Origin: an uncultured Bacteroidaceae bacterium
GTDB taxonomy: Bacteria > Bacteroidota > Bacteroidia > Bacteroidales > Bacteroidaceae
Assembly: GCA_905233765.1 (NCBI GenBank)
Contig: CAJOCU010000005.1
Span: 31,811-95,810, forward strand
Length of the DNA: 64,000 nt
Reading direction: 5' to 3'
In this document: positions 2,225-52,177 of the stretch, piece after piece
How positions within the stretch are numbered: the first letter of the stretch is position 1
Layout: each line of letters starts with the position of its first letter
Position numbers and translations under genes: made by a program
Notes under the pieces: model-generated
The model's database searches: none
Seen by the model: the letters and a program-made list of their open reading frames with translations, nothing else
Told to the model about the DNA's origin: nothing

Positions 2225-5200
2225 AGAAGTCGAAGCCGACGATGGTATCTACGAAGCGGTGGACGTAGTCGGCAGCGGTGGTGGGCCACTGGAAGCCGAG
2301 GCGATAGAGCACCTGCGTAGTGTATTCGTTGTCGGCCTCTATCCAACGCGTCTTATGACCAATGCCCATGTCGTAGGCCATCAGCGGACGTAACAGGGTG
2401 ACGAGGTCGGGATTCTCCATCATCTTCTCTAATGCCTGTTGATATTCCTCGTTCTCTACACGCTTTAGCGTAATGCCTGCCTCGGAAAAGCCTGTGAGGA
2501 TATCGCTGAGGAACTGGCGATGGGTGTTCGAGGGATGGAACACCATGCACTCTTTCGGTGTCTGTGCCAACAGCATAATGGCGTGGGCCACCTCGTCGAT
2601 GGGGGAGAACTCGAAACGCTGGTCGAGGGCTTCGTAGGGCACCATACCTATCACGACATAGGCACGCAACTTGGCCAGGAAGTTGTTGGTGTTGAAGTTG
2701 ATTTGGAACTCACCATCCTTCTGACGTGCCGACAGGTTGCCCACACGCATGATTTTGGCATTCAACCCATGGTTAGCAATGGCGTCAAGCACCAACTCCT
2801 CGGCCTTGTACTTCGAATAGACGTACTTGTTGGCATCGATATTCTGCCCGATATCAAGCAGTTGTTCTGTCAACTTCACCTCAGGCCCTGGCACGTTGTC
2901 GACGCTGATGCCTGCAATGCTGTTCGTGGAGATATGAATCAGGCGTGAACCTGTGCGCAGGCAGAAGGTGATGAGGTGGCGCACCGACTCAATGTTCACC
3001 ATTTCTATGTCGTTGCCCGCAGAGAAATGCTTCACGTTGGCTACGCAGTTGATGACCGTTAAGGCCCCACCCCCGCCCCCTCCCCTGTTAGGGAGGGGAG
3101 CATTGTCTAGGGCATTGGGCTGTGTGACCTCTGCTGCGAAGGCGGTGATGCGCTCGCCAAAATGCTGGAAGGCCTCTGTCTTACCGAAGTAATAGAAGTA
3201 CATCGTCTTCAGACGGCTCGTGGCCTCCTCGTCGCCTTTCGCGCGGATAGGACAGAGGATGTGCCCCTCGTAGTTCGTCAACAGCTCGTTCAAGATATGG
3301 ATCCCGAGATAACCCGTAGCCCCTGTCAGCAGCACATCGCCAATAGGCTGACGTTTTCCATTGTGGAATGAAGAGAGGGTGTTCTTTGTGAGGATGGAAG
3401 GAGCCCCCCCCACGGCCCCCGAGGGGGCTTCTATTGTTGCGTTGTCAGAGGACATTTGTATAGTGTCCCCCTCGGGGGACGACAGGGGGGCTCTCACAAA
3501 TGCAGCCAACGCCTTGGGTGTCTTCAGATTGAACAGGTCGTTGAAGACAATCTGCACGCCGTGTTTGCTGGCTTCCACGATGACCTTGATGGCATTGATG
3601 CTGGTGCCGCCAATCTCGAAGAAGTTGTCCGTGGCGCCTACCTCCTGAATCTTCAGTACGTCGGAGAAGATGGTGCAGAAAAGTTCTTCCATCTCGCCCT
3701 TTGGTGCCTCATACTCGGTGGCACGCTTCATCTCTGGTACAGGCAGTGCCTTGCGGTTGATTTTACCGTTGGGCGTCATCGGCATCACCTCCATCTTCAT
3801 GTAGACATCGGGCACCATATAGTCGGCCAGAGACGAGGCTTTGAGGGCGGTGCAGATGTCTTCGTCTCCGATGGCAGAACCATCGGACACAGTATAGTAA
3901 AGCACCAGGTGCTCGTTGCCCTGCACCTTGCGCACCTCGGCAGCGGCCTGACGGATGCCTTCGATGTTGAGGGCCTTGTTCTCGATTTCGCCCAGCTCGA
4001 TGCGGAAGCCGCGCAGTTTCACCTGGGTGTCGATACGACCGAGGTATTCAAGCTGTCCCTCGTCGTTCCAGCGGCAGAGGTCTCCGGTGTGGTACATCCG
4101 CACGGGACGTCCCCAGCGGTCTTCCTTCACGAACGGACAATCGACGAACGATGTTGCAGTGCGCTCCGGCAGACGCCAATAGCCGCGCCCCACCTGAATA
4201 CCGGCAAAGCATAGTTCACCGGCTACGCCCTGTGGCACGAGATTGCCAGCTGTATCCACGATGAAGTTCCAGTTGTTGGCTACGCTTTGGCCGATAGGAA
4301 TATTCTCCACACGACGGCCAGGAGCGATGGCGTAGTAAGAGGTGTCGTCGGTACACTCCGTAGGACCATAGACATTGATGATCTCGATGTGGTCGCTATA
4401 GACACCGTCCATCTTCTCGCCGCCACCCGTGGTGAAGCGGATAGGCAGGTCGTCGAAGGCATTGAGCAGCAGACTGGTCATCGCGGTGGAATAGCCGCCC
4501 CCCGTACACTGATGGTCGATGAGGAACTGGCGTATCTGTGCAAGGTCCTTGCGAATCTCCGTCGGCATGACATGGAACGAGCCACCCAGCGTCAGCACAG
4601 GATACATATCCTCGATGTGGGCATCGAACGAGAACGAGCGGTGTCCGCTGATGCGGTCGGCAGCCGTCAGTTTCTCCATATCGATGACCACAGCAATGAA
4701 GTTACGCAAGCCGGCTTGATGGAGCATGGCGCCCTTGGGTTTGCCTGTGGAGCCGGAGGTGTAGATCATATAGGCAAGGCCATCGGGAGAAGATAAATCA
4801 AGGGGTGTGTCGGCGGGTAAACCGCCGACCGCACTGGCCATGAAGTCATCAATGAAGAAAGTACGGGCGGCAGCGGTGCTGAAGTCGCCCTCGGCCTGCT
4901 TTGCTTCAAGGACGGCATGAGTGGTAATCAGCACTTTCGACTCCGAATTCTCCAGCATATAACTCAAGCGTTCGTTGGGGTATTCGAAGTCCAGCGGCGT
5001 ATAAGCGGCACCGGCCTTGTGGATTGACAGCACGGCCAACGGGAACTCCTTGAAACGGTCGAGCATGACGCAGACGAAATCATTGGGCTGTACGCCGAAA
5101 TCTATCAGCTGGTGCGCCAATGCATTCGAGTAATTATCCATTTCAGCGTAGGTCAACTGACTGTCCCTATCCACCACAGCGGGGGCATCGGGCGTTCGCT

Positions 5201-8200
5201 TGGCCTGTTCGGTGAAGAGGTTGGCAAAGGTCTTACTAATGTCGATGTCGATTTCCTTTCCCGTACCTATTTTAATAATGCGCTGGGCCTCCTCGTCGCT
5301 GACAATGCTAATACTGGTCAAGGCTGCATCGGGCTTTGCTATCATCCGTTCTACCGTCACCTTCACGGCATCTGCGAGACTCTGCATCAAACGGGCAGAG
5401 TATTTTCCGTTGTCATATTCTACACAGACACATGCCTGACCATTGATGTCGCGGATGAAGAAAGTGATGGGGAACTTGGGTACTTGAAGTTCCAGACCTT
5501 CTATCTCCAAGGGTGTACCCTGACAGACGTATTGGCTGATCATGCCCAATTGATAAACAAGCTGAATCTCAGCCGTCAAACCGTAGTCGGCAGCAATCTG
5601 TGCAAACGGATAGTTCTCGTGGCGAAGGGTCTCGTCGAAGTTTTCGCTGACCTCCTGCAGGAACTCCTTCACACTTTGTTTTCCGATAGTAGCACTCAGA
5701 GCCAGCGTATTGACAAACATGCCCACGGTGTTGCGGATGTGTAGGTTGGAGCGACCGCTTGAGACGGTGGTAATGCAGACCTGCTCGTTGTTGGCAAATC
5801 GCGACAAAGAATAGTAAATGGCCGACAGAATCAAATGGGCCGGCGTGATATGGTTGCCACGACAGAAGGCATCGATAGCCTCGAAATCAAGAGAAGAGAT
5901 GGCTTTGCCGATTGTTCCCTTCGAGGGGTTCGGCAGGTCTGGACGCACCTCCGTAGCGGTTTCTACTACGGACAGCCGTTCTTTAAAGAAATCCTTGGCA
6001 GCCTGATAGTCTGCCCCACCTTCTGCAACTTTTTCGGCTGTCACATAGGCCGCATAATTCTGGTCTTCATCCTCAATGGAATAACCATTGAGCACACTGC
6101 ATAGCTGCTGGAGGAAGATATCAACAGAACCACCATCGAATATCAGGTGGTGCACATCCATCATCAGATAGGTCTGCCGTTCTGTAGTTACTATCTCAAA
6201 ACGATAGAGCGGACCCTTGTTGAGGTCGAAAGGACGTACAAAGTCGTGCTTATATGATGACAACTCCTCCTCGCTCATCTGCTTCACAGGAATCTCCACA
6301 GCCTGCTCCAAATCAACGGTCTGTACGATGCCCTCGTCTCCGTTACCGAAGTGAGCGGTCATCTCAGGATGCACCTTCACAAGCGTCCTGAGGGCCTCTG
6401 CCAATTGGGCAGTATCCGTTTGCTGCGGGAAAGCAATCTTGTTAGGAATGTTATAGAGCGTAGTCTCCGGATTCTTCAAACAGTCGAAATAGACACCTGT
6501 CTGGGCGTAGGACAGGGGGACAGCCTCACCCCCATCCCCTCTCCAGTAGAGGGGCGTAGATAGATTCTGTTCTTGAGAGTGACCACTCCCCTCGCCCTTT
6601 GTGAGGTTTCTCCATATCTCATTTTCAATGCTCTGCAGGGTGCCGCTTTTGACAAGAGACTTTGAATCTAATGTCACGCCATAGCGCTTATTCACCTGAA
6701 TGGCCAATTTAATGGCTGAGATAGAGGTGAGTCCGGCATAGCCCAAAACAGTTGTGATGCCGAAATCCGTGTTTCCAACGATGGCCGCAATCATCTCATG
6801 CAGTTCCTGCTCGAGGACGTTTAAGGGAGCCTGCTCGGTTTGTTGCGATGACATCGCAACAGACTTGACGGGTTTCGGCAGGGCGCGTTTGTTCACCTTC
6901 TGGTTTTGGTTCAATGGAATCTTGTCAATCTGCATCGTCACTGCAGGCACCATGTAGGGCGGTTTCTGATCAAGGATAAAGCTATTTAAAGCTTCGGTGT
7001 CCACCTGTTGGTCGCTGACGATATAGGCCGCAATGAACTTGCCGCCATTCTCGTCATCGAAGGCCTGCACCGTGGCATCCTTGATGCCGGGAAACTCGCG
7101 AATGACAGCTTCCACCTCCTTCAGCTCAATGCGGAAACCGCGAATCTTCACCTGGCCATCCCTGCGGCCGATGAACTGCAGGTTGCCGTCGGGCAGCCAG
7201 CGCACGATGTCGCCAGTCTTATATACCCGAGCATATTTTTCATTGTCTGTAAAGGGATTCTGAATAAACACTTCTGCGTTCTTGTCCGGTCGGTTCAGGT
7301 ATCCGAGTGCCACTTGCGGTCCGGCTACCCACATTTCACCCATAGCCCCCACAGGCAGACGACGTCCCTGTTGATCGACTACATAAAGCCGCACATTGTC
7401 CAAAGGTTTGCCAATGGGGACATCCGTATCTTTCTTTGTGATAGGATAGACAGTGATGATGATGGTGGCCTCCGTAGGACCATAGCCGTTGTGCAACTGA
7501 TAGCCTTGAGGCGGAGCGATACTGGCCAGTTTCTCGCCAGCCACCGAGAGATGCATCAAGGAGTGATTCTCAATGTTCGTTGCAAACTGATAGCCCACCT
7601 GTGTAGTCATGAAGGTATGGGTGATGTGTTCGCGCTCCAGGTATTCGTTGAGCGACACAAGATCCAGGCGCAGTTCCTCAGGGATGATGTGCACGGTGGC
7701 ACCGCGCGTCAGTGGCGGATAGATACCCTCCTGATGGACATCGAAACCATAGCTGGCATATTCAGCCACATTATGCTCTGGCTTTAGGTCGTAATATTTC
7801 CAGTACCAGTTGCAGTAGCATACCAGATTGGCATGTGTCAGTTGGCAACCTTTGGGAATGCCTGTCGAGCCGGAGGTATAAAGGAGGATAAAAAGAGAGT
7901 CGGGTTTCGGTTCCGTAGGCTGCGACAGAGTCGCAGCTAACGAAAGCAGGTCCTTGGTCAGCAGCACTTCGCCCTGATATTCGTCAACGAGGTCACGCAA
8001 CTCCTCGTCGGCAATGAGCAACTTCGCGCCGGCATCTTTCATCATGAAGTTCAGGCGTTCCTTCGGATAGCTGGGATCCAGCGGCTGATAGGCACAGCCA
8101 GCCTTCAGCACGCCGAGTGAGGCAATAGCCATCCACTCGCAGCGAGGAATGATGACAGAAACGGCATCGCCCACGCCCAGTCCTTTGGATACGATATAGC

Positions 8201-9614
8201 CTGCAATGCGGTCGCTGATGTCATCTACCTCGGCATAGGTGTAACGATGGTCCTTGAAAACGACGGCTTCGGCATCTGGTGTGGCCTTGGCCTGCCGGCG
8301 GAACAGCGACACCACCGTCTGGGTGTCATCATAGGGACGGTCTGTATCGTTGAACGAGTCGAGAAGCTCCACCTGCGAAGCTGTGGTAATATTGATGTCG
8401 CTCAGTTTTTCTTCACTGAGGAACCCCGCTACCACCGCCTCATAGCTTTCCATCAACTGGGTGATAAGCAACTCGCTATACATATTGGCGCTGTATTCTG
8501 CCTCCACACAATAATGGCCGTCCTTCGTGTATGCCTTCAGATAGAGCGGCATCTCGCGGGTGTTGTTGTTCAGACGTCGGGCTGTCATCGGCTTGCCGCA
8601 TAGTTCCAGACTATCGAACAGGGGTCCGTGCCAGACAAAGAGTGTGGCAGCCTGCAGTCCCAAGTCTGCGGCTACGTCAGCGTATGCGTAGGCCTCGTGC
8701 TGGCGCTGCCCCATCATTTGCCGCTCCCCAGCCCTCAGGAAGTCGAGCACGGTGGTGTCGTTGTCAAACTTCGTATAGACGGGCAATGTTCTTACCAACA
8801 TGGCTACCGAGTGGGCCAGACGCTTATCGGCTCGCCCATTGTGTATCGTGTTGAACAGCACCTGCTGCTCGTTGTTGTATTTCGCCAGCAGAAAGCTGTA
8901 GGCTGCCGTGAAGAAAGTGCTCTTAAAGATGTCGTGCTCCTTGCAATAGGCTTCGACAGCATCGATGGCTACATTCATCGTCCGCGTCAGCAGACCCTCT
9001 TGAGGCTCTTCTCCGTCCAAATCGGGCAGCAACGGTGAATAGCAGTCGCCGCAATCGAAGTTTTCTGCATACCATTTTTTGTCCTCCTCAAAGGCCGGAC
9101 TCTCGCGCTGCGCAGCCTCAGCCTGGGCTACCTCGGCCAAAGTCAATGCCTCGGCCTCTAACGTTTCGCCACGATAGGCTTTCTCGATGTCGGCCAGCAG
9201 CACCTTTCTCGATGTGCCGTCGCTGATGATATGGTGGATGTCCTGCAGCAGATAATAGTGCGCAGCATCCTTTAGCAGACGGATTCGGAACAAACGGTCA
9301 TGATACAGGTCGAAGGGCTTGACGAAACTGTCGATGGTCATCTGTGGGTTGTCAACGGTCTCGACCTCGAGACTGAATGTCTCGCTATCGCAGATGGTTT
9401 GCACGGCATCGCCCTGCTCGTTCAACTCGATGCGCGTAAACAGCGTCGGGTGGGCCTTCACGGCAGCCTCGATGGCCGCCGTCAGTTTTTCCTCGTCCAA
9501 ACTGGCGTCTAAGATGTAAACATAGGGTATGTTATAACAAGCCTCTCCCTGGTGGTTGACACATTCCACGTAGAGACCATACTGCGTTTTAGTTAATGGC
9601 GCGGAAATCTTCAT
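2196..9614 (-). CDS. bimodular non-ribosomal peptide synthetase, domain order C-A-T-C-A-T-R (terminal thioester reductase)
   Basis: 2472 aa ORF. C1 motif HHIISDG is at about 9216-9236. A1 core LLYTSGSTGIPKG is at about 7858-7896, and A1 also has NGYGPTE and KVNKRALP. T1 reads LGYAGLTSISAIKL at about 6720. C2 motif HHLIFDGGS is at about 6131-6157. A2 core MIYTSGSTGKPKG is at about 4741-4775, and A2 also has NVYGPTE and NGKINRKALP. T2 reads FFEIGGTSINAIKV at about 3600. The R domain has LLTGATGYLGIHIL at about 3301-3340 and YSKYKAEE. No TE domain is present. Confidence 0.95.
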   Translation of the reverse strand: MKISAPLTKTQYGLYVECVNHQGEACYNIPYVYILDASLDEEKLTAAIEAAVKAHPTLFTRIELNEQGDAVQTICDSETFSLEVETVDNPQMTIDSFVKPFDLYHDRLFRIRLLKDAAHYYLLQDIHHIISDGTSRKVLLADIEKAYRGETLEAEALTLAEVAQAEAAQRESPAFEEDKKWYAENFDCGDCYSPLLPDLDGEEPQEGLLTRTMNVAIDAVEAYCKEHDIFKSTFFTAAYSFLLAKYNNEQQVLFNTIHNGRADKRLAHSVAMLVRTLPVYTKFDNDTTVLDFLRAGERQMMGQRQHEAYAYADVAADLGLQAATLFVWHGPLFDSLELCGKPMTARRLNNNTREMPLYLKAYTKDGHYCVEAEYSANMYSELLITQLMESYEAVVAGFLSEEKLSDINITTASQVELLDSFNDTDRPYDDTQTVVSLFRRQAKATPDAEAVVFKDHRYTYAEVDDISDRIAGYIVSKGLGVGDAVSVIIPRCEWMAIASLGVLKAGCAYQPLDPSYPKERLNFMMKDAGAKLLIADEELRDLVDEYQGEVLLTKDLLSLAATLSQPTEPKPDSLFILLYTSGSTGIPKGCQLTHANLVCYCNWYWKYYDLKPEHNVAEYASYGFDVHQEGIYPPLTRGATVHIIPEELRLDLVSLNEYLEREHITHTFMTTQVGYQFATNIENHSLMHLSVAGEKLASIAPPQGYQLHNGYGPTEATIIITVYPITKKDTDVPIGKPLDNVRLYVVDQQGRRLPVGAMGEMWVAGPQVALGYLNRPDKNAEVFIQNPFTDNEKYARVYKTGDIVRWLPDGNLQFIGRRDGQVKIRGFRIELKEVEAVIREFPGIKDATVQAFDDENGGKFIAAYIVSDQQVDTEALNSFILDQKPPYMVPAVTMQIDKIPLNQNQKVNKRALPKPVKSVAMSSQQTEQAPLNVLEQELHEMIAAIVGNTDFGITTVLGYAGLTSISAIKLAIQVNKRYGVTLDSKSLVKSGTLQSIENEIWRNLTKGEGSGHSQEQNLSTPLYWRGDGGEAVPLSYAQTGVYFDCLKNPETTLYNIPNKIAFPQQTDTAQLAEALRTLVKVHPEMTAHFGNGDEGIVQTVDLEQAVEIPVKQMSEEELSSYKHDFVRPFDLNKGPLYRFEIVTTERQTYLMMDVHHLIFDGGSVDIFLQQLCSVLNGYSIEDEDQNYAAYVTAEKVAEGGADYQAAKDFFKERLSVVETATEVRPDLPNPSKGTIGKAISSLDFEAIDAFCRGNHITPAHLILSAIYYSLSRFANNEQVCITTVSSGRSNLHIRNTVGMFVNTLALSATIGKQSVKEFLQEVSENFDETLRHENYPFAQIAADYGLTAEIQLVYQLGMISQYVCQGTPLEIEGLELQVPKFPITFFIRDINGQACVCVEYDNGKYSARLMQSLADAVKVTVERMIAKPDAALTSISIVSDEEAQRIIKIGTGKEIDIDISKTFANLFTEQAKRTPDAPAVVDRDSQLTYAEMDNYSNALAHQLIDFGVQPNDFVCVMLDRFKEFPLAVLSIHKAGAAYTPLDFEYPNERLSYMLENSESKVLITTHAVLEAKQAEGDFSTAAARTFFIDDFMASAVGGLPADTPLDLSSPDGLAYMIYTSGSTGKPKGAMLHQAGLRNFIAVVIDMEKLTAADRISGHRSFSFDAHIEDMYPVLTLGGSFHVMPTEIRKDLAQIRQFLIDHQCTGGGYSTAMTSLLLNAFDDLPIRFTTGGGEKMDGVYSDHIEIINVYGPTECTDDTSYYAIAPGRRVENIPIGQSVANNWNFIVDTAGNLVPQGVAGELCFAGIQVGRGYWRLPERTATSFVDCPFVKEDRWGRPVRMYHTGDLCRWNDEGQLEYLGRIDTQVKLRGFRIELGEIENKALNIEGIRQAAAEVRKVQGNEHLVLYYTVSDGSAIGDEDICTALKASSLADYMVPDVYMKMEVMPMTPNGKINRKALPVPEMKRATEYEAPKGEMEELFCTIFSDVLKIQEVGATDNFFEIGGTSINAIKVIVEASKHGVQIVFNDLFNLKTPKALAAFVRAPLSSPEGDTIQMSSDNATIEAPSGAVGGAPSILTKNTLSSFHNGKRQPIGDVLLTGATGYLGIHILNELLTNYEGHILCPIRAKGDEEATSRLKTMYFYYFGKTEAFQHFGERITAFAAEVTQPNALDNAPLPNRGGGGGGALTVINCVANVKHFSAGNDIEMVNIESVRHLITFCLRTGSRLIHISTNSIAGISVDNVPGPEVKLTEQLLDIGQNIDANKYVYSKYKAEELVLDAIANHGLNAKIMRVGNLSARQKDGEFQINFNTNNFLAKLRAYVVIGMVPYEALDQRFEFSPIDEVAHAIMLLAQTPKECMVFHPSNTHRQFLSDILTGFSEAGITLKRVENEEYQQALEKMMENPDLVTLLRPLMAYDMGIGHKTRWIEADNEYTTQVLYRLGFQWPTTAADYVHRFVDTIVGFDFFTPPASSDR
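3063..3101. repeat. GC-rich palindromic unit, in-frame inside the NRPS reductase domain (encodes PLPNRGGGGGGA)
   Basis: ggccccacccccgccccctcccctgttagggaggggagc. A C-rich arm, a GTTA loop and a G-rich arm. It aligns with the units at 50622, 43471(rc), 6519 and 43400. Confidence 0.7.
3401..3493. repeat. 93 bp MITE-like composite with ~28 bp terminal inverted repeats, in-frame in the NRPS T2-R linker
   Basis: The left end is gagccccccccacggcccccgagggggc. The reverse complement of the right end is gagcccccctgtcgtcccccgagggggac, about 24 of 28 identical. The core is a 36 bp AT-richer stretch. 93 nt equals 31 codons (APLSSPEGDTIQMSSDNATIEAPSGAVGGAPS). Confidence 0.7.
6511..6606. repeat. GC-rich repeat unit(s), in-frame in the NRPS T1-C2 linker
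   Basis: 6519 gacagcctcacccccatcccctctccagtagaggggcg aligns with the family. A second partial C-rich unit, ccactcccctcgccctttgtgagg, is at 6583-6606. Together they encode LTKGEGSGHSQEQNLSTPLYWRGDGGEA. Confidence 0.55.
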
Positions 9615-9617
9615 ATG

Positions 9618-10964
9618 TCAATTTTTACACTCTCTTAATTCAAACTTAACCTTGTATTTCTTGTGGAGGACGAAGATGGCTACCATCTCGATGAGGTAGG
9701 CCAGCAGATAGCTGAACCACAAATAGTGGGGCGCCATGTACGACATGATCCACAGCACGGGAATGACCGTCAGCGACAGTGCAAAGGAAATGAACAGCGC
9801 TATCTGGTGGTAGTTGTAGAGCTTATAGACGATCATGATGGTGTAGATGTAGCAGAACGGAATGAGACTGACGGCAAAGATGCGCAGCGCGTAGCAACCC
9901 TCGGCAATCATGTCTGCCTCGTAGGCTCCGAATAGATGCACGATCATCTCCGGCCATATCCACACACAGACGCAGGTGATGAGCATTGCCACGGTGATGA
10001 AGCCAAAAGATTTACGCTGTACCAGCATGAAAGCCTCATCGTCGCCCTTGCCCACCTGAATGGAGCCAAACGACTGGATGGTGCGGCAGACTCCCCCAAG
10101 GAAGAGGTTGTATATCTGCAACAGGTACATACAGATGGCGAAAGCGAAAACACCCGCCCGCCCCAGTGCCGAAACGACGATGTGGTTAGAGCAGAACAGC
10201 AGCACTGTCAGACAGACGGAAGCAATGGCCAGCGGTGCGCCTTGCGACACGATATCTTTCAGAGTAGAAATAAAACTTACCGGCCGCGCTGGCTTGTTCA
10301 GGGTGAGCCGCAGCGTGTTCTTGGCTGAGAAAAAATGGAACGCCATCATGGCGATGCCCACCACGTGGCCGATGACGGTAGCCGTAGAACTACTGGCAAT
10401 ACCCCATCCGAAATACTTGATGAACACAACGTCGAGCACCAGATGGACGGCATTATCGACGAAAATCGAGACCGACACCAGCTTCGGACTGCCATCGACA
10501 CTGACCATCGTATCAATACCCCACATCAGCAGATAGAATGGTGCACCAAGCATCATCACCCGCAGATAGGCCTTAGTGGGCTCAAAGAGTTCCTCGCTGC
10601 TGCACAGCAACCTGGTGGAGGCATCGGGGAAGAACAGACCGAAGGCCGAGATAATGAGACCCGCCACCAGACAGGCCATCATCGATACGGTGAAGATGTA
10701 CGAGGCGCGCTGCGTGTCCTTCTTCCCCAGCTGAATACCCACCAGCATGCCGGCACCCGTCGCCAGCAACATGTTGAGGGTAAACAGAAACTGTATCATG
10801 GTACGCGATATGTTGACGGCACTCACTGAGTCCTCGTCAATCAGGTTACCCACGATGATGGCGTCAATGACATTGCCCAGACAGGCCGAGAGGGCAATGA
10901 GAATGGACGACCATAAGAAACGCCAGAACTGGAGATTAAACTCCTTTTGCTCTTTTGTATTCAT
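9618..10964 (-). CDS. MATE family efflux transporter
   Basis: A 12-TM-like hydrophobic protein (ORF 9618..11003). The start is set at MNTKEQKEF (ATG at 10964). Its stop lies 3 nt before the NRPS start, so the two are likely co-transcribed. Confidence 0.8.
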   Translation of the reverse strand: MNTKEQKEFNLQFWRFLWSSILIALSACLGNVIDAIIVGNLIDEDSVSAVNISRTMIQFLFTLNMLLATGAGMLVGIQLGKKDTQRASYIFTVSMMACLVAGLIISAFGLFFPDASTRLLCSSEELFEPTKAYLRVMMLGAPFYLLMWGIDTMVSVDGSPKLVSVSIFVDNAVHLVLDVVFIKYFGWGIASSSTATVIGHVVGIAMMAFHFFSAKNTLRLTLNKPARPVSFISTLKDIVSQGAPLAIASVCLTVLLFCSNHIVVSALGRAGVFAFAICMYLLQIYNLFLGGVCRTIQSFGSIQVGKGDDEAFMLVQRKSFGFITVAMLITCVCVWIWPEMIVHLFGAYEADMIAEGCYALRIFAVSLIPFCYIYTIMIVYKLYNYHQIALFISFALSLTVIPVLWIMSYMAPHYLWFSYLLAYLIEMVAIFVLHKKYKVKFELRECKN

Positions 10965-10981
10965 CTTGTATTCGTGTTTAC

Positions 10982-11176
10982 TCAAAGAAACCGAATGCAG
11001 CAATCTGTCTCAACATCTGGATGATGTATTCGCTGAGGGTATCGCTCCAGTGGAAACCGAGACGGCGCAGGACTCAACTTGATGATACACGGAATATTAT
11101 ACTGCATCATCTGCGGATATTTCAGGCAGTCGTAAAGAACGCCCAACTGTGACTGGAGCAAAGGATAGGTTTTCAT
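10982..11176 (-). pseudogene. truncated remnant of an NRPS condensation-domain N-terminus (64 codons)
   Basis: [34 protein letters not shown] aligns with the start of C2 in the neighbouring NRPS (VPLSYAQTGVYFDCLKNPETTLYNIPNKIAF) and with C1 (APLTKTQYGLYVECVNHQGEACYNIPYVYIL). It then degenerates and stops. Its ATG overlaps the folE stop (ATGA). Confidence 0.5.
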
Positions 11177-42619: not shown

Positions 42620-42622
42620 GGG

Positions 42623-43248: not shown

Positions 43249-43719
43249 TCAGTTGCCGGCCAGCAAATCATAGCGTATCTCATCGCAGAGCATGGAGCAG
43301 CCAGGGGAGGGGGCCGGTTCGGCCTGTGCGGTTTGTAGTTGCGATGTGGGGACTGGAACTCGGACGATGCGGGTCTCGTAAATGGTGTCGTGGATGACTG
43401 AAGACCCACCCTCCTGTCCCTCCCGTGAAGGGAGGGATGTCTCGCTACGCTCAATAGCTGCGCGCAGCATCTCCCCTCCATCACGGGAGGGGTCGGAGGT
43501 GGGGCTTCCTATTCCCTTTCCCACAAAGAATCCTACCACCAGTGCAGCTGCGACAGCGCCCCACCATAGCGGAGTGGGAAAAGACCCTCTCCCCGCTCCC
43601 CCGTGAGGGGGGAGAACCTTGCTTCGCTCGAAGGGGCTGGGCGCCACGTTGAGTTGTTCGTTTTGCTCGTCGCGAAGGTCGCGGGCGGCGGAGATGATAT
43701 CAGAATCTTGAAGCTTCAT
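43249..43719 (-). CDS. single-pass membrane protein downstream of an ECF sigma factor (anti-sigma-like), about one quarter of it made of repeat units
   Basis: 156 aa with the TM segment LWWGAVAAALVVGFFVG. It carries three GC-rich units. Confidence 0.5.
   Translation of the reverse strand: MKLQDSDIISAARDLRDEQNEQLNVAPSPFERSKVLPPHGGAGRGSFPTPLWWGAVAAALVVGFFVGKGIGSPTSDPSRDGGEMLRAAIERSETSLPSREGQEGGSSVIHDTIYETRIVRVPVPTSQLQTAQAEPAPSPGCSMLCDEIRYDLLAGN
43400..43508. repeat. ~109 bp MITE-like composite: two GC-rich units in inverted orientation (~40 bp TIRs) flanking a 31 bp core, in-frame
   Basis: The left end is gaagacccaccctcctgtccctcccgtgaagggagggatg. The reverse complement of the right end is gaagccccacctccgacccctcccgtgatggaggggagatg. 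The two are clearly alignable along their whole length. Confidence 0.7.
43578..43617. repeat. GC-rich palindromic unit, in-frame (encodes VLPPHGGAGRGSF)
   Basis: gaaaagaccctctccccgctcccccgtgaggggggagaac. Nearly identical to the reverse complement of 50687-50720 (cctctccccgctcccccataagggggaggg). Confidence 0.7.
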
Positions 43720-44325: not shown

Positions 44326-44328
44326 GAC

Positions 44329-47245: not shown

Positions 47246-47424
47246 AGGTTTCTTGTTAATGGTAGCAATACCAGTTCAAACTGTTTCTTGATCTTACGTG
47301 GACAATAATAGCGAAAAATCTCCAATCTCTTATCATAAAGAAGACAGAAACTTCATTTTGGCTGTAACATTTCCGACTTTTCCCTACAACATGCTCCGCC
47401 GTCATCCTATCGGGAATCTGTCGA

Positions 47425-47467
47425 AAGAAAAACTTTTGCGTAAAACCCTATGAACGCTCTGGCGGAA
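47425..47467. repeat. ~42 nt conserved intergenic motif, copy 2
   Basis: aaagaaaaacttttgcgtaaaaccctatgaacgctctggcggaa. See copy 1 at 41653. Confidence 0.55.
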
Positions 47468-47773
47468 CATTGCTAATGATATAGAATGGGATGAAAGACA
47501 TGAGTGGACAGGATGACGAGGAAAATTCGATACGTTGTAGGGGATGATTCGATGCATTGTTGTTGACGAAGCAACGCATTTTAGGAGTCGTTTTGTCTAA
47601 ATGTTTTGATTATTCCATGATGATGGAATGATTATTCAATCATGATGGAATGATGAGGAGATAAGGATGTGTTGAACGAAAGAACCCATCGCATCATGCG
47701 ATGCGACGGGTCTTCTGGATTCAGTCGAGCAAGCCTATGCGCACGGAAAAGGCGAAGAGAACCATTCTCCAGG

Positions 47774-47822
47774 AGGCTACTCGGCATTGCTACGCTCAAG
47801 TAGGCTACTCGGCACGGCTACG
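47774..47822. repeat. two 21 nt direct repeats just downstream of the preA-like gene
   Basis: aggctactcggcattgctacg (47774) and aggctactcggcacggctacg (47802), 19 of 21 identical and 28 nt apart. Confidence 0.55.
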
Positions 47823-47848
47823 ACACCAGCAAGCTGATTTATAAATTT

Positions 47849-49339
47849 CTACGGTTGTTTCTTGGGGATGCGCTTTGTCACGCCGATGGCACCCGCCGGG
47901 CATACCAGGCGGCAGAGGTGACACCCGACGCATTTGGTGCCCACGATGCGGGGCTGGCGGGTCTCATGATTGAAGACGATGGCCTGATGACCGCCGTCGT
48001 TGCATGAGATTTCACAGCGCCCGCAGCCTACGCACAGTTCGCGGTTGATCTTGGGATAGATGATGGAGCCGCGATCCAGATTATCCGGCTTGAGGAATGA
48101 TGGCAGCTGCTCGCCCACGAGCTCTTCTAAGCGGGTGATGCCGTGCTTGGCCATATAGCGTTGCAGGCCCAGTTGCAGGTCGTCGATGATGCGGTAGCCA
48201 TATTGCATGACGGCAGTGCAGACTTGCACGTTGCTGCAGCCCAGCTGGATGAATTCCAGGGCATCGCACCAGGTCTCGATGCCGCCGATGCCGCTGAGCG
48301 CTAATCTTGGATTTTCAACATTGCCCTTTATACCGCAGTCCACCTCTGACAGTTCCAGGATATGGCGCAGGGCGATGGGACGGACGGCACGGCCGGAGTA
48401 GCCGGAAACGGCGCGATGGCCAGCAACCTCGGCATCTTCGTCCATCGTTACGGACTTGATGGTGTTGATGGCTGAAATGGCATCAGCACCCGCCTCCACA
48501 CATGCCTGGGCAGGCTCTGCGATGTGGGTGATGTTGGGGGTCATCTTGGAAATGACAGGGATATGGACACTACGCTTGACACAGGCGGTGAAGGCCCTCA
48601 CCAGTTCGGGACTTTGGCCTACGTCGCTGCCCATCCCCTTGTGTGTCATCTGCGGACATGAGAAGTTCAGTTCCACGGCGTCGCAACCTGCCGCCTCGGC
48701 CTTCTTGGCGAGCGCTATCCACTCCTCTTCGGTCTGTCCCATGATGGAGGCCACCACGACCTTGGTGGGGTAGTCTTGTTTCAGGCGGCGCAGGATGTCG
48801 AAGTCCATATCCAAGGGGTTCTCGCTCAGCTGTTCCATGTTGCGGAAACCGTAGAAGTCGCCGTGGGTAGCGTTGCTGTGTATGGCATCGAAGCGGGGCG
48901 ACACCTCCTTGATTTCCTGCAGGCAGATGGTCTTGTAAAAGACTCCTGCCCAACCGGCTTCGAAGGCTTTGGCCACCATCTCATAGTTGGTGCACACGGC
49001 AGATGAGGCGAGGAAAAACGGATTCTCGCAGGGGATGCCGCAGAACGTGATGTCGAGGGTGGGATAGTGGCTGTCGTCCACGTCGTCCTCATGGATGCTG
49101 CGCAGCACCTCCTTGATTCGGATGGGCCAGTTGTAGTGGATGCAGGCCTGCTCAGCCCGTTCCAGATCGGCGTCGGTACAGTTCTTCACCCAGCGCAAAG
49201 CTGGCTTGTGGTTGACAAAGCGGATGGCGCGGATGGCCCGTGCCGGGTCGCCAGTCTGGCAGGCTTGTGTGCAGGGAGCGTCCTGACACAACAGGCAGCG
49301 GCTGGCTTCTTCATAGATGTTTACTTTTCGGTTGGTCAT
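47849..49339 (-). CDS. dihydropyrimidine/dihydroorotate dehydrogenase-family flavoprotein with N- and C-terminal Fe-S cluster motifs (PreA-like)
   Basis: The start is set at MTNRKVNIYEE (ATG at 49339). It contains CLLCQDAPCTQAC, ENPFFLASS, and the C-terminal ferredoxin motifs CVGCGRCEISC and CVGCHLCRLVCP. Confidence 0.8.
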   Translation of the reverse strand: MTNRKVNIYEEASRCLLCQDAPCTQACQTGDPARAIRAIRFVNHKPALRWVKNCTDADLERAEQACIHYNWPIRIKEVLRSIHEDDVDDSHYPTLDITFCGIPCENPFFLASSAVCTNYEMVAKAFEAGWAGVFYKTICLQEIKEVSPRFDAIHSNATHGDFYGFRNMEQLSENPLDMDFDILRRLKQDYPTKVVVASIMGQTEEEWIALAKKAEAAGCDAVELNFSCPQMTHKGMGSDVGQSPELVRAFTACVKRSVHIPVISKMTPNITHIAEPAQACVEAGADAISAINTIKSVTMDEDAEVAGHRAVSGYSGRAVRPIALRHILELSEVDCGIKGNVENPRLALSGIGGIETWCDALEFIQLGCSNVQVCTAVMQYGYRIIDDLQLGLQRYMAKHGITRLEELVGEQLPSFLKPDNLDRGSIIYPKINRELCVGCGRCEISCNDGGHQAIVFNHETRQPRIVGTKCVGCHLCRLVCPAGAIGVTKRIPKKQP

Positions 49340-49374
49340 AGGTCTTAAAGGTGTTAGTGTTTTTAAATATGTTC

Positions 49375-50376
49375 CTAGTCGTTGATAGCTCCGCAGTAGG
49401 GGCAGACACCCTTCTGCTGCAGGCGTTGGTGGCAGCGTCCGCAGAGGTAGCGCGGACGTGCATATACGATATATCGGTAGAGGGCAAAGACGATGTAGGC
49501 GATGGTGAGGATGGCGGTCAGGAAGAGCGGCGTGAGGGAGATGACGAGGTAAGCAATCATGCACACGGCCAAGAGGGCCAGCAGGTAGAGGATGGCAGCA
49601 CCGGTAGGCAGCATCTTCATGACATCATCGATGACGACGAGGGTGAGCAGGAACAAAGCCCAAACGGCACAGAGGAACAGGCACAGCAGGAGAGGCTGCG
49701 AAAAAGGTGTGAGCGTGGGATGGTAGTAGAACTGCACCCACATTTGAGGATAGCTGTGCTGGATGAGGGCATAGAGCCATGCGGTGGCAGTGAGGGTGAC
49801 GACCAAAAGGGTGGGGTAGATGCTGGGGATGTCGTCGAGATGAATCATTCGGAAGCGTTTCCGGCGAAGGATATGCACCAGGGCGAAGGCTGCTGCGACA
49901 GCCATCACGATGAGGAACCACAAGACGTGGCCGTCGGAGAAGAAATGAATGAATTGGCTGATGGGGTCGTCGGGTGTGGTTGCTTGCAGAAGGTCGTTCT
50001 CATGGAGCCAGCCCATCGTCTCTTGATCACGTGCCACCTTAATCCAGACGCTATCGACAGAATCCTCGGGAATGGTGGTGATGGCTGCGATGACGAGCTG
50101 GTTGTGCTTCATAATCCAGATACTGTCGCTACTTTCGGCAACGCCTCCGCTCCAGTGCATGGGCCGATCCTCAACAAGCAGGAGACTATCGGCGTGCACT
50201 AACAAGTTGTAGCCCACGCCGTAGGGACGGCTGAGGCGCTGGGCGGTGCTGTCGGTATCAGGGGAGTCGATGATGATGTGCTGGGGTGGAGCGTAGCAGG
50301 AGGAGAACATTATCACTGCTGCGATAATGAATGAAAAATGAAAAGTGAAGAGTGAAAAATGAAATATTCTTTTCAT
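49375..50376 (-). CDS. lipoprotein-like multi-pass membrane protein with a C-terminal zinc-ribbon (CGRC...CPYCG)
   Basis: The start is set at MKRIFHFSLFTFHFSFIIAAVIMFSSC. There are five or six TM segments. The signal peptide is encoded by a heptamer array. Confidence 0.6.
   Translation of the reverse strand: MKRIFHFSLFTFHFSFIIAAVIMFSSCYAPPQHIIIDSPDTDSTAQRLSRPYGVGYNLLVHADSLLLVEDRPMHWSGGVAESSDSIWIMKHNQLVIAAITTIPEDSVDSVWIKVARDQETMGWLHENDLLQATTPDDPISQFIHFFSDGHVLWFLIVMAVAAAFALVHILRRKRFRMIHLDDIPSIYPTLLVVTLTATAWLYALIQHSYPQMWVQFYYHPTLTPFSQPLLLCLFLCAVWALFLLTLVVIDDVMKMLPTGAAILYLLALLAVCMIAYLVISLTPLFLTAILTIAYIVFALYRYIVYARPRYLCGRCHQRLQQKGVCPYCGAIND
50331..50365. repeat. tandem heptanucleotide array (5 units, RTGAARA) encoding a signal peptide
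   Basis: atgaaaa atgaaaa gtgaaga gtgaaaa atgaaat. The coding strand gives FHFSLFTFHFSF. Confidence 0.65.
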
Positions 50377-50398
50377 AGCGGATAATGCTCTTGAACTC

Positions 50399-52177
50399 TT
50401 AAACCCTTGCGCTTGAGCTTGCTCGCTTCGCTTGCGAAGAACACTTTGAATCTTCTCCGGCCAATACGTGCATCTCACAGCGGCGGCAGTCGAAGCGTAG
50501 GGGGAAGGTGCGGCCGTCGGCCAGGCGCAGGCGCAGGGGCTCGCGGAAGGGGAGGCCCCGCCCGTCGCGCGTGCAGTAACCGAGGGCATGGCGGAGGCAG
50601 TAGCGGCAGGTCATGAGAGGAGACTCACCCCCGGCCCCTTCCGTTAGGGAGGGGGAGAGGCTGGCGCACAGCTCATGAGCGGTAGCGAAACCCTCCCCCT
50701 TATGGGGGAGCGGGGAGAGGATATTCTCTGACACCACCTCTCTCCTCCATTCTCCCAGCACAGAGGCAGGAATGAACCAGTTGTCGGAAAGTTGGATTTC
50801 AATGTCTGCTTCGGTGCAGGTATAGGGTGTGTCGCCGAGGCGCATGAGTTGGCGACGGATATTGTCGGCCTGTGGGGTGCGAGCTAGTTCGTGAGGGTAG
50901 GAGAATGAAGAATGAAGAGTGAAGAATGACGAATGCAGGGTGAGGCGGAAGCCGTCGTCAGTGTCTTCAAGGAGCCAGCGGACGGGGATGCGACGGTCGG
51001 CAGTGGGTCGAGCAAGCTGTCGCTCGAAATCAGCATCGAGATTGCGATAGAGAGGTCCCCCTTTAGGCAATTGCGCAAGGATGGAAGGGTCGGTGGGGAA
51101 GATGCGTCCCTGCTCATCCACGCGGTTCACGCGGAAGCCCTGCAGACGGCCTTCGGCATCGAAGAAGCAGAGGCCGTCGCCATTATGAATAGCGGCCCCA
51201 CCCTCGGTGAGCTTTTCTCCAATGGACTTCGGCGTGGCGAAGTTGGCCATATCGCGTGCGCGACCGTGCAAGAAGTAATCGGTGAAACCGCGGTTAAAGC
51301 TCTTCTGAAGGTCGGGAGTAAAGGTAATGGCTGAGGTGCCGTAGGAGGCGCGGGAATAGTCGTCGGGACGTCGCGCGATGATTTCATCAATACGCTGACG
51401 GTAGTAGGCCGTGGTGTTCTTGACGTAGGCGACATCCTTCAGGCGTCCCTCGATTTTGAAACTGCTGACGCCGGCATCCATCATGGCTTCGAGGTCGGCG
51501 GCGCGGTTCATGTCGCGGAGCGAGAGGAGATGGCGCTGCTTTTCCAAAACCTTCCCATCGGCATCGATGAGGTCGAAGGGGAGGCGGCAGAACTGGGCGC
51601 ATTCTCCGCGGTTGGCGCTGCGTCCGAAGCAGTACTCGCTGGCATAGCAGCGTCCGCTGTAGCTGACGCAGAGGGCACCATGTATGAAGGCTTCAAGGGG
51701 CATCTCGGGCACCGCCTCGTGGATGGCGCGGATATCATCCAGGGAGAGCTCGCGGGCCAGAACGGTCTGTTCGTAGCCAGCCTCGGCACGCGCACGAACA
51801 TCGTCAATCGTGCGGTTGTCCATCTGTGTGGAGCTGTGCAGGGGTAGAGGAGTTGAGAGCTGAGAGTTGAGAGTTGGGAGTTGAGGGTCTTGGACAATCA
51901 ATGCATCCACGCTTATGGCAGCAAGGTCGTTGATGAGGGCTTGGGCCGCTGGGAGCTCCTCATTGTAAAGTAGGGTGTTGACCGTCACATAGATTTTCAC
52001 TCCGTAAGGATGGGCATAATGCACGAGCTCGGCAATGTCCTCTACGCTGTTGCCTGCTGCGGCGCGGGCACCAAAGCGTGGAGCACCAATATAGACAGCA
52101 TCGGCGCCGTGACGAATGGCCTCGATGCCACACTCCAGGTTGCGGGCTGGAGCAAGAAGCTCAATGGATCTCTTCAA
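50399..52177 (-). CDS. peptidase U32 family protein (extended, 592 aa)
   Basis: Contains ELLAPARNLECGIEAIRHGADAVYIGAP, LHSSTQM and CYASEYCFGRSANRGECAQFCR. TTG start in the track. It carries two GC-rich units and two heptamer arrays. Confidence 0.85.
   Translation of the reverse strand: MKRSIELLAPARNLECGIEAIRHGADAVYIGAPRFGARAAAGNSVEDIAELVHYAHPYGVKIYVTVNTLLYNEELPAAQALINDLAAISVDALIVQDPQLPTLNSQLSTPLPLHSSTQMDNRTIDDVRARAEAGYEQTVLARELSLDDIRAIHEAVPEMPLEAFIHGALCVSYSGRCYASEYCFGRSANRGECAQFCRLPFDLIDADGKVLEKQRHLLSLRDMNRAADLEAMMDAGVSSFKIEGRLKDVAYVKNTTAYYRQRIDEIIARRPDDYSRASYGTSAITFTPDLQKSFNRGFTDYFLHGRARDMANFATPKSIGEKLTEGGAAIHNGDGLCFFDAEGRLQGFRVNRVDEQGRIFPTDPSILAQLPKGGPLYRNLDADFERQLARPTADRRIPVRWLLEDTDDGFRLTLHSSFFTLHSSFSYPHELARTPQADNIRRQLMRLGDTPYTCTEADIEIQLSDNWFIPASVLGEWRREVVSENILSPLPHKGEGFATAHELCASLSPSLTEGAGGESPLMTCRYCLRHALGYCTRDGRGLPFREPLRLRLADGRTFPLRFDCRRCEMHVLAGEDSKCSSQAKRASSSARV
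50622..50720. repeat. 99 bp composite of two GC-rich units in opposite orientation flanking a 26 bp core, in-frame in the U32 peptidase
   Basis: 50622 is gactcacccccggccccttccgttagggagggggagagg and 50687 is gaaaccctcccccttatgggggagcggggagagg. Together they encode ENILSPLPHKGEGFATAHELCASLSPSLTEGAGGES. Confidence 0.7.
50891..50946. repeat. tandem heptanucleotide array (8 units, RTGARGA) inside the U32 peptidase gene
   Basis: gtgaggg taggaga atgaaga atgaaga gtgaaga atgacga atgcagg gtgaggc. The coding strand gives TLHSSFFTLHSSFSYP, a 7-aa peptide repeat. Confidence 0.65.
51853..51887. repeat. tandem heptanucleotide array (5 units, YTGAGAG) inside the U32 peptidase gene
   Basis: ttgagag ctgagag ttgagag ttgggag ttgaggg. 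The coding strand gives PQLPTLNSQLST. Confidence 0.6.

Follow-up and report, generated by a model that had tools for sequence, protein, structure and literature searches.

Ten copies of a GC-rich palindromic unit were found at seven sites of the 64-kb window (the whole stretch of DNA that was analysed, from a contig of an uncultured Bacteroidaceae bacterium), distributed over four genes coding for an NRPS, an ECF sigma factor, an anti-sigma-like protein and a U32 peptidase. The basic unit is about 36-40 nt long and consists, from 5' to 3', of a C-rich arm, a loop of 3-8 nt, a complementary G-rich arm, a linker of 1-4 nt and a G-rich tail which mirrors the G arm; inspection of the sub-families indicated that a T or A in the tail sits opposite an A in the arm. 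Aligned copies share this register on the coding strand and end after the tail with GGG(T/G)CT(TC), and in none of them is the hairpin preceded on its 5' side by a GTAG, GTGG or CGTC tetranucleotide. A copy is either a singlet (about 36-40 nt) or part of an inverted doublet of about 93-110 nt, in which two inverted units flank a spacer of 30-50 nt and fold into a long hairpin. Three doublets are present in the window, and 27 candidate doublet pairings, some of them loose or overlapping, were obtained in mid-GC loci.

A strict detector (pyrimidine arm of at least 6 pairs, loop of 3-8 nt, G-rich tail of 14 nt) returned six units in the window as compared to a mean of 0.05 in 40 dinucleotide shuffles. 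The excess over shuffled sequence predicted by an earlier sequence-only reading thus holds for the window. Matches to the hairpin alone numbered 23 versus 2.3 in shuffles, each palindromic hairpin being scored on both strands. The same reading had quoted six plus-strand strings starting at 3063, 50622, 6519, 43400, 42324 and 43578, which are exact, two copies in opposite orientation at 43471-43508 and 50687-50720, which are present, and eight peptides, all of which were found in the host ORFs. Its statement that the units keep the frame of long ORFs was likewise borne out, each host ORF being intact around its units, with conserved flanks in all four genes. It had counted at least five host genes and had included 12164 and 12295 in a SPOR ORF as looser relatives; these are different hairpins with an architecture unlike that of the family, were missed by both detectors and were left uncounted.

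Sites in the four host genes

Three sites lie in the NRPS gene, all on the minus strand. The singlet at 3063-3101 (C arm CCCCTCCC, G arm GGGAGGGG, tail GGGGGTGGGG) matches the strict detector and encodes APLPNRGGGGGGA (NRPS aa 2172-2184). It falls within the NAD_binding_4 domain (Pfam, aa 2096-2346), in a variable loop of the terminal reductase domain and not in an interdomain linker, the position previously assigned to it. An AF2 model of the reductase, poor overall (mean pLDDT 53.8), places the unit between two strands with pLDDT <50. The loop has 4-6 residues in most orthologues, and at the DNA level L088 and L089 represent empty sites, while in L087 the site is taken by another variant; the net length change is only about +27 nt. 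The second singlet, at 6519-6556 (arm GGAGAGGGG, tail GGGGGTGAGG; strict-detector match), encodes TPLYWRGDGGEAV (aa 1020-1032) in the linker preceding the second condensation domain, and its sub-family (PLALWRGAGGEA) fills the reductase loop in P0135, P0170 and L087.

The segment 3401-3493, formerly listed as a looser relative, belongs to a sub-family and clearly forms an inverted doublet of 93 nt, with arms GAGCCCCCC...GCCCCCGAGGGGGC and a 36-nt spacer, and encodes RAPLSSPEGDTIQMSSDNATIEAPSGAVGGAP (aa 2041-2072) in the PCP-reductase linker. The corresponding linkers of orthologous NRPSs have unrelated sequences, and the unit is roughly length-neutral there. Over 91-94 nt, spacer included, this doublet is 80-82% identical to composites in the ABC-F genes of the related genomes L083, L016 and L046, with scores of 90-99 as compared to a maximum of 20 in random windows.

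The ECF sigma gene contains a minus-strand singlet at 42324-42360, encoding QSLPLGRDEEGSS (aa 87-99) in the linker between regions 2 and 4. In most of 120 orthologues SIDEARTLVS-NAAS-DSGF takes the place of the unit, and unit-filled orthologues show a net gain of 4 aa (+12 nt); a third variant reads PLWGDERG. DNA comparison with the 42324 unit identified the L333 sigma gene as an empty site. The anti-sigma-like ORF (43249-43719) harbors two sites. The inverted doublet at 43400-43508 (minus strand; strict-detector match) is composed of 43400-43439 on the minus strand and 43471-43508 on the plus strand with tails pointing outward, and encodes SPTSDPSRDGGE...SLPSREGQEGGS. In the L333 orthologue a doublet occupies the corresponding position and is read in other frames. 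The singlet at 43578-43617 (minus strand; strict-detector match) encodes the juxtamembrane segment VLPPHGGAGRGSF (aa 35-48) and is missing from the L333 orthologue, the length difference being 36 nt or 12 codons. Empty sites, which the earlier reading had proposed to look for in orthologue alignments, were found in the reductase loop, the sigma linker and the juxtamembrane segment of the anti-sigma-like ORF. The fourth gene, U32/DUF3656, carries the inverted doublet 50622-50720 (minus strand; 50622-50660 on the minus and 50687-50720 on the plus strand; strict-detector match), which encodes SPLPHKGEGF...SLSPSLTEGAGGES (aa 486-519). In close relatives this linker, which is hypervariable, is occupied by related units; in distant orthologues its place is taken by a folded segment.

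DNA repeat, peptide linker or selected structure

Judged from the sequences, the family is a dispersed palindromic DNA repeat and not a conserved peptide motif, in line with the earlier proposal, as the units are read in all three frames and in both orientations. Five of the six frames of the unit are open, and the peptides it encodes are rich in Pro, Gly, Ser and Glu. Every copy in the window lies in a linker or loop and encodes a Pro/Gly/Ser-rich peptide, as would be the case if low-complexity Pro/Gly linkers (e.g. PxLPxxGxGGE) had been selected convergently and the likeness of the DNA were a by-product of codon choice. This explanation is already contradicted by the unrelated peptides which the same DNA yields in its different frames and orientations. 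It also offers no protein-level rationale for the palindromy or the mirror tail, copies in unrelated genes share conserved spacer DNA, intergenic copies occur and in other phyla this unit type lies outside genes. We therefore regard it as very improbable.

All copies in the window and nearly all in its closest relatives are inside long ORFs. An unbiased pattern scan of metagenome or viral sequence placed about two thirds of the rumen-type copies inside long ORFs and about one third outside; these counts, like all others of coding against intergenic copies, derive from ORF heuristics over a few hundred kb, not a whole genome. Some of the intergenic copies directly follow stop codons (L097, L127, L172). 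The suggestion that units survive only where they stay translatable does not agree with this third. Nor is the unit type peculiar to Bacteroidota: the same architecture constitutes an extragenic REP/BIME-like repeat in Rhizobiales plasmids, in many soil contigs and in phage contigs. The extragenic copies in Alphaproteobacteria are clustered and alternate in orientation, and in high-GC contigs the unit type is mostly found outside any single reading frame.

Among loci around the U32 gene, matches were obtained in the window and in 14 of its 17 closest relatives, whereas only 5 of 61 more distant loci have any. Unit densities in these 14 loci are 0.05-0.26 per kb (the remaining three have none), as compared to 0.05 units expected per 64 kb. 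Within this set of loci the family is, on the evidence of sequence matches, restricted to the nearest relatives of the window. Unit similarity is 0.41 within genomes and 0.24 between genomes (permutation p < 0.0005), and the two arms of the ABC-F doublet vary together, within L055 as well as within L007. The unit sites are indel-prone and hypervariable in orthologue alignments and differ in variant or state even between genomes that are 96.9% identical. The window, like every one of its relatives, comes from a MAG or metagenome contig, which raises the question of an assembly or binning artefact. The same units were found in the same genes in independent assemblies from ENA, Logan, JGI and NCBI, and reading frames and flanks are preserved, so that we attach next to no probability to such an origin.

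Among the doublets, 3401-3493 folds as a single long hairpin (-31 kcal/mol, z = -5.9 relative to shuffles), 43400-43508 as another (-36.3 kcal/mol, z = -6.5), and 50622-50720 gave z = -2.1. The singlets barely exceed composition-matched shuffles (z +0.1 to -1.9), indicating little extra stability. The units might be selected nucleic-acid structures (hairpin, G-quadruplex or intramolecular triplex) which act by pausing transcription or translation, by stabilising segments of mRNA or by binding a protein, similar to intergenic REPs and BIMEs. Consistent with this, hairpin pairing is maintained despite differing arm sequences, and the lengths of the G-runs in G arm and tail (the run preceding the A of the arm and the run following the T of the tail) co-vary, being (3,3) in 115 copies and (4,4-5) in 61 copies. 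Unit 3063 is predicted by G4-aware folding to strongly favour a four-tetrad quadruplex, and Pannonibacter has BIME-like clusters located between the genes of a binding protein and of permeases. However, unit 3063 and the soil consensus were the only ones with a predicted quadruplex, and four G-tracts are present in only a subset of units. Close relatives differ in presence or absence of units, positions are not conserved, both orientations relative to transcription occur (7 versus 3 in the window) and Rfam holds no family matching the units. Selection for structure is in our view improbable.

Relation to known palindromic repeats

Rickettsia palindromic elements (RPE-1 to RPE-10; Ogata et al. 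2000, as summarised in PMC10969869) had been named as the known analogue, which is apt, though in-frame intragenic REPs are also known outside Rickettsia (PMC3733652). Both RPEs and the units described here are dispersed palindromic repeats which lie in-frame in unrelated housekeeping genes (here in four host genes, with the ORFs preserved) and have copies outside genes too; RPEs are read through as extra peptide at tolerant positions, and the units here probably are as well. RPEs are AT-rich, about 100-150 bp long (described as ~150 bp in PMC10969869) and found in a reduced obligate intracellular alphaproteobacterium, whereas the units here are GC-rich, 36-40 nt long (doublets 93-110 nt), built of two arms and a mirror tail and reside in a free-living rumen bacterium of the Bacteroidota. 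Composition and length as described suggest that the two are unrelated in sequence and that RPEs are a functional analogue only.

GTAG- and CGTC-tagged REPs are mostly extragenic and occur in-frame within known genes in Opitutus terrae, Thauera and R. conorii; of the inserts within genes, more than half are dimers that code for 20-30 aa (Di Nocera, De Gregorio and Rocco 2013, PMC3733652), which is just what is seen here. The units here resemble them as short REP-type palindromes present in-frame as singlets and dimers, but have a G-rich mirror tail in place of the GTAG/CGTC tag, and in the DNA sampled from the lineage most copies are intragenic, as compared to a small minority of tagged REPs. 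With REPINs (Bertels and Rainey 2011, PMC3116915; Nunvar 2010, PMC2817692) they share the arrangement of a short palindrome in inverted doublets with a spacer in between, which form long hairpins, as well as genome-specific sequence populations and inheritance within lineages. REPINs differ from the units in sequence, are extragenic and are associated with a RAYT gene that is present in one copy and bordered by REPs. The family thus has the short dispersed palindrome and the inverted doublets of REPs and REPINs and lacks their extragenic location and end tetranucleotide. A cluster of about 900 bp with alternating orientation on the Pannonibacter plasmid p.p-1, between an ABC-transporter binding-protein gene and permease genes, consists of the same unit type at a classical BIME location; this arrangement was seen in Alphaproteobacteria and not in the window, where intragenic singlets and doublets are found. 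The GC clusters of yeast mitochondrial DNA are likewise short, GC-rich, palindromic and mobile, some of them in-frame in a protein gene (var1), but belong to another domain of life and an AT-rich genome and have unrelated sequences.

Spread and retention of the units

We consider it likely that the units form a REP/REPIN-like family of short, non-autonomous palindromic DNA repeats. Two inverted units around a spacer could be extruded as one long hairpin, and a process acting at the DNA level would spread or homogenise the units within a genome. A trans-acting enzyme which recognises hairpins, e.g. a RAYT or IS200/IS605-type transposase, is one candidate, and short-patch gene conversion between copies is another. 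A crude motif regex, a weak test for a single-copy gene given that 64 kb of this genome were available, retrieved no IS200/RAYT transposase over the examined loci. No target-site duplications were visible at the best-defined pairs of filled and empty sites. The parent-IS terminal inverted repeats and target-site duplications characteristic of MITEs are thus not seen with these units, for which no parent IS is known.

The view of the units as clean insertions does not suit several sites, where native residues were replaced with a small net length change; patch conversion, or an insertion with a later deletion, accounts for this better than simple transposition does. Frequent replacement at hardly changed net length would also be expected of immobile units made in place at GC-rich tracts by template switching, quasi-palindrome correction or slippage, with short-patch gene conversion homogenising them and any G/C-rich linker drifting towards the unit. 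The different variants at one site in close relatives, the co-varying doublet arms within a genome and the lack of a visible target-site duplication or transposase point in the same direction. Formation in place does not readily account for a 93-nt composite with a non-repetitive spacer that is as a whole about 81% identical between unrelated genes, for the 36-nt difference in the anti-sigma-like ORF, which resembles gain or loss of a whole unit, or for loops and flanks such as GGGTCT(TC) that are conserved over many contigs, and we judge it unlikely. Gene conversion as a means of spread overlaps with the REP/REPIN-like explanation.

On that explanation, many copies would have landed in coding DNA in the rumen Prevotellaceae/Bacteroidaceae lineage. 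Those with a net length change divisible by three, located in linkers or surface loops, would leave the protein working and be retained, presumably translated as part of the host proteins, and the linkers would become hypervariable and filled with repeats. Selection on the reading frame rather than targeting may account for the intragenic survivors. REPs lying in-frame within genes have been described from other phyla (RPEs; PMC3733652), and the phenomenon itself is therefore known. The units would represent a further example, in an uncultured rumen Prevotella-like bacterium, of a rare phenomenon first seen as Rickettsia palindromic elements: a family of a type that lies between genes elsewhere and here would be read through in-frame as Pro/Gly-rich loops.

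Palindromic units inside reading frames

The 64-kb window contains ten units at seven sites in four genes: singlets at 3063, 6519, 42324 and 43578, and inverted doublets (two units around a spacer) at 3401-3493, 43400-43508 and 50622-50720. All host ORFs lie on the minus strand. Pfam identified three of them as an NRPS of 2472 aa (2196-9614; domain order C-A-PCP-C-A-PCP-reductase), an ECF sigma factor (42125-42619) and a U32/DUF3656 peptidase-family protein (50399-52177); the fourth ORF (43249-43719) had no match in the Pfam search and is called anti-sigma-like after an orthologue with the same termini that adjoins an ECF sigma gene. On the coding strand the units share a common register consisting of a C-rich arm, a loop of 3-8 nt, a complementary G-rich arm, a linker of 1-4 nt and a G-rich tail, which often terminates in GGG(T/G)CT(TC). 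Examples of the encoded peptides are PSLTEGAGGES and APLPNRGGGGGGA.

A sequence-only reading had described these units as mobile or recombinogenic palindromes kept in frame within at least five unrelated genes. Its six plus-strand strings proved exact in sequence and position, its two copies in the opposite orientation were present where it had placed them, its eight peptides were all recovered, and every unit lay within an intact ORF. The host genes are indeed unrelated but number four. Among the looser relatives it had named, 3401-3493 was counted as an inverted doublet, whereas 12164 and 12295, in the minus-strand ORF of a SPOR protein (11741-12373; Pfam), turned out to be different hairpins and were not accepted. 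Its placement of the NRPS units in interdomain linkers holds for 6519 and for the doublet 3401-3493 but not for 3063, which lies inside the reductase domain.

The nucleotide profile search it had proposed was performed with nhmmer using eight clear copies; four iterations failed to enlarge it beyond 17-18 significant matches in 1.4 Mb, the units being too short and too degenerate for this approach. The profile was replaced by a structural detector relying on architecture only, which found 6 units in the window, whereas 40 shuffles that preserved dinucleotides averaged 0.05. Rfam at the gathering threshold gave no match, neither for the window nor for 16 unit-rich loci, and ARAGORN found no tRNA or tmRNA.

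If the units were a conserved peptide motif, the same peptide would be encoded by unrelated DNA. The opposite was observed: the units at 3063 and 50622 are nearly identical in DNA, yet their reading frames are offset by one base (CCT AAC versus CTA ACG), giving PLPNRGG and PSLTEGA, respectively. All three forward frames and at least two reverse frames are in use when the window is taken together with its closest relatives and with rumen-type metagenome contigs. The anti-sigma orthologue of the compared locus L333 carries a doublet at the position of window 43400-43508 in other frames (PTPTLPVREG...APSLIGRAGGES versus SPTSDPSRDGGE...SLPSREGQEGGS in the window). Furthermore, the doublet 3401-3493 in the NRPS linker, 93 nt or 31 codons long, aligns from end to end, non-repetitive spacer included, with a composite in the ABC-F genes of three relatives (L083, L016 and L046), with 80-82% identity over 91-94 nt and local scores of 90-99 compared to a maximum of 20 for random windows. 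The multi-frame reading and the composite common to NRPS and ABC-F genes support the core of the earlier interpretation, namely that the units are a DNA-level palindromic repeat residing in frame within genes, analogous to the Rickettsia palindromic elements (RPEs).

Occupied, empty and replaced sites among relatives

The exact U32 protein of the window is also present on ENA and Logan metagenome contigs, and the nearest GTDB genomes are MAGs of uncultured rumen Bacteroidaceae/Prevotellaceae with at most 70% protein identity. We compared 80 loci around U32 orthologues. Of the 17 closest relatives (L003-L017, L046, L055), 14 contain units, at 0.05-0.26 per kb, and nearly all of the approximately 40 matches in close relatives were inside ORFs of 164-2473 aa, in both orientations. 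They were essentially absent from the 61 more distant loci, with five exceptions (Tannerella forsythia L040 with three hits, L063 with two, and L060, L071 and L087 with one apiece).

Alignment of orthologues, as the sequence-only reading had suggested, revealed empty sites. The reductase loop between AEVTQPDALD and LTVVNC has 4-6 residues in most of 120 orthologues and reads NAPLPNRGGGGGGA in the window; P0123 carries a diverged copy, P0135, P0170 and L087 carry another sub-family (PLALWRGAGGEA), and some other orthologues have a heptamer-repeat insert. At the DNA level this loop is empty in L088 and L089, while the window and L087 hold different variants at the same point. Most ECF sigma orthologues read SIDEARTLVS-NAAS-DSGF; in a minority this is replaced by SIDDPRIQSLPLGGDGEGSSSF, which adds a net 4 aa, or by the variant PLWGDERG. 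The anti-sigma singlet 43578-43617 is missing in L333, with a length difference of 36 nt. The U32 protein has two hot-spot regions. One is the linker at aa 486-519, which in relatives is hypervariable and filled with units, a folded segment being kept in distant orthologues; the other, the site between ATPKSxGE and IHNGDG, exists in four states (native beta-hairpin, doublet, singlet or short remnant), which differ between L083 and L085 even though these are 96.9% identical over 17.5 kb.

Clean in-frame insertion, as originally envisaged, fits the 36-nt difference in the anti-sigma ORF but not several sites at which native residues were replaced by a unit rather than just added to; replacement is as common as insertion. 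With a divergence of 10-20% in the nearest empty orthologues, insertion boundaries at most sites can be placed only approximately. Unit similarity was 0.41 within genomes versus 0.24 between genomes (permutation p < 0.0005; 26 within-genome pairs). In L055 the orthologous ABC-F doublet has two identical arms; they differ from those of L007, whose two arms in turn resemble each other. This likeness of arms within a genome points to recent intragenomic spread or homogenisation.

Several further features were observed at these loci. In the U32 linker (equivalent to window 50600-50740), P0004, P0007, P0013, P0015 and P0016 share a third type of segment repeated in frame (SGMTECQSAQSDQGISLMQ or GLTECQSALSDRSRTPLL); in P0004 it appears nested within a GC-rich unit. 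The folded segment (TYLGNVMNGEARRFYLEHGV...), kept by the distant P0099-P0120 between DUF3656 and the C-terminal Cys-rich motif, is absent from the window protein (aa ~485-520), its place in the window lineage being taken by the repeat-filled linker. A second, AT-richer family forms tandem heptamer arrays (AGAATGA, GAGTTGA, AATGAAA, GAAATAA; ~4-8 copies) at window 50902-50935, 51850-51885, 50330-50364, 12241-12294 and 53093-53118 and at L087 9880-9920. Two of them lie in frame within the U32 gene and encode TLHSSFFTLHSSF and LNSQLST, and a (CAATTCT)n array, read as NSQFSILNSQ or in reverse as EELRVKSEE, occupies the same orthologue loops as the GC-rich units. In L087 the NRPS is split into two ORFs where the heptamer array lies; since slippage by 7 nt shifts the frame, phase variation is possible. 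Tandem duplications of 22 nt and 28 nt, two copies each, are located at 47607-47654 and 47767-47822 within the apparently non-coding 47308-47849. The two-module NRPS with its terminal thioester reductase adjoins a 461-aa ORF (together 2196-11003), the equivalent neighbour being a MatE transporter in L087 and L089. Rumen metagenomes frequently contain close homologues of the reductase part (P0121-P0193), so the NRPS looks like a widespread aldehyde- or alcohol-releasing type of rumen Bacteroidales.

Distribution and three-part architecture of the unit

The exact pattern CCCTCCC N3-7 GGGAGGG N1-5 GGGGGTG was scanned in the JGI metagenome collection and in IMG/VR, with at least 120 matches in each; the listed contigs range from 33% to 74% GC, and hairpin and tail continue well past the 21 specified bases. 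Carriers of the three-part unit (L090-L329) are metagenome contigs from soil, peat and other sources and many viral contigs of IMG/VR; a stretch of 14 kb holds up to 4 copies. Above 62% GC, where ORF length is useless as an indicator of coding status, a GC3-phase test placed 14% of copies in one continuous frame versus 46% of random positions. In PLSDB, a soil consensus matched Rhizobium, Sinorhizobium, Methylobacterium, Pannonibacter, Aminobacter and a cyanobacterium, and none of the matches fell on an annotated feature. The Pannonibacter phragmitetus plasmid p.p-1 (L330 5300-6230) harbours an intergenic cluster of ~900 bp with alternating unit orientation between the binding-protein gene and the permease genes of an alphaproteobacterial ABC-transporter operon, which is the classical position of a BIME.

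The sequence-only reading had further held that units survive only where translatable. This agrees with the window, where all copies lie in ORFs, but not with related contigs. On contigs of 48-56% GC, of which many show the GGGTCT end of the rumen type, most copies (~65%) are in ORFs of at least 150 aa, a lower share than the 84-88% of random positions, and L097, L127 and L172 have clear intergenic copies directly past stop codons. The family is therefore not limited to translatable positions; a majority of intragenic copies is the mark of the window lineage.

Folding as single-stranded DNA bore out the expected hairpins most clearly for doublets, two of which form long hairpins of -31 and -36 kcal/mol (z = -5.9 and -6.5; third doublet z = -2.1). 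Singlets fold as expected with a modest gain over C/G-rich shuffles of the same composition (z +0.1 to -1.9). The tail mirrors the G arm and is neither a direct nor an inverted copy of it. The pattern scan provided 234 distinct copies, with G3-4 A G4 NN G5 T G3-5 as the most frequent form; in these copies the G-run before the A co-varies with the G-run after the T ((3,3) in 115 copies, (4,4-5) in 61). By inspection, other sub-families pair likewise (arm GGAGAGGGG with tail GGGGTGAGG; arm GGGGGGAG with tail GAGAGGGG), and in each one inspected a tail T or A stands opposite the arm A. Judged by its sequence, the mirror tail would satisfy the requirement of a single-strand pyrimidine:purine-purine fold-back triplex, and in sub-family A it would also yield a four-tract G-quadruplex motif. 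A G-quadruplex as the general explanation was rejected, as four G-tracts occur only in sub-family A; G4-aware folding preferred the quadruplex only for unit 3063 and the soil consensus. A hairpin model with the tail pairing to the C arm was not adopted owing to a mismatch at the conserved T. The AF2 prediction of the reductase domain, a low-confidence model, would lend weak support to a loop position of unit 3063, which it places between two strands. A short motif, CTCGCT(A/T)CGCTCG or GCTGGCGC(A/G)CAGC, recurs beside units and in doublet spacers (window 43400-43470 and 50660-50690; L009 14110-14150; L105 10075-10130; L191), also in contigs of 33-37% GC, which may mean that some of the units are parts of a larger conserved element.

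Relation to known repeats and implications

Intragenic in-frame palindromic repeats are known from the RPEs in Rickettsia. GTAG- or CGTC-tagged REPs occur inside genes of Opitutus, Thauera and others, and more than half of these intragenic inserts are dimers encoding 20-30 aa (PMC3733652). ERIC elements are also known within genes (PMC10969869), and ~90% of bacterial MITEs are intergenic (PMC11602168). Two defining features of REPs, extragenic location and a terminal tag, are lacking in the window lineage, and we therefore term the units REP/REPIN-like, and RPE-like in behaviour, rather than members of these families. A full-text literature search with six unit sequences returned no paper, and the literature on REPIN or RAYT in Prevotella and on intragenic MITEs in Bacteroidales gave no account of the family; within this limited coverage we found no description of the family or its three-part architecture, none for Bacteroidota, and no name for the cross-phylum unit type.

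The units might spread by transposase-mediated mobilisation or by gene conversion; the doublets are the larger element. A regular-expression screen for IS200/RAYT, a crude motif, across 14,792 ORFs of the compared loci returned only false matches, all prephenate dehydratase. It is conceivable, if rather improbable, that the unit, with its pyrimidine arm, purine arm and mirror purine tail, defines an unnamed cross-phylum REP-like class of bacteria and their phages, with a dedicated enzyme recognising a triplex- or G4-like fold, and is actively written into coding DNA of the rumen Prevotellaceae lineage of the window by patch replacement at about one unit per 6-7 kb. If this were true, the system would rank among the main sources of linker and loop diversity in the proteome. 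Bacteroidota, whose ribosomes make no use of Shine-Dalgarno pairing, might then tolerate such writing, as the strongly SD-like GGGAGGGG tracts within genes would be harmless.

Unit density in the lineage is comparable to enterobacterial REP loads. For annotation and modelling, unit segments should be treated as DNA repeats and not as domains, and the units are usable as strain-level markers. The unit type connects the intragenic copies of one phylum with extragenic REP/BIME-like clusters of Alphaproteobacteria and with phage contigs, which makes recognition of the unit and the role of its mirror tail experimentally approachable. The units provide a concrete mechanism for the highly variable linker lengths among orthologues in rumen MAGs, and they extend the RPE-type phenomenon, selfish or structural palindromic DNA in protein genes, to an abundant free-living lineage of gut and rumen Bacteroidota.
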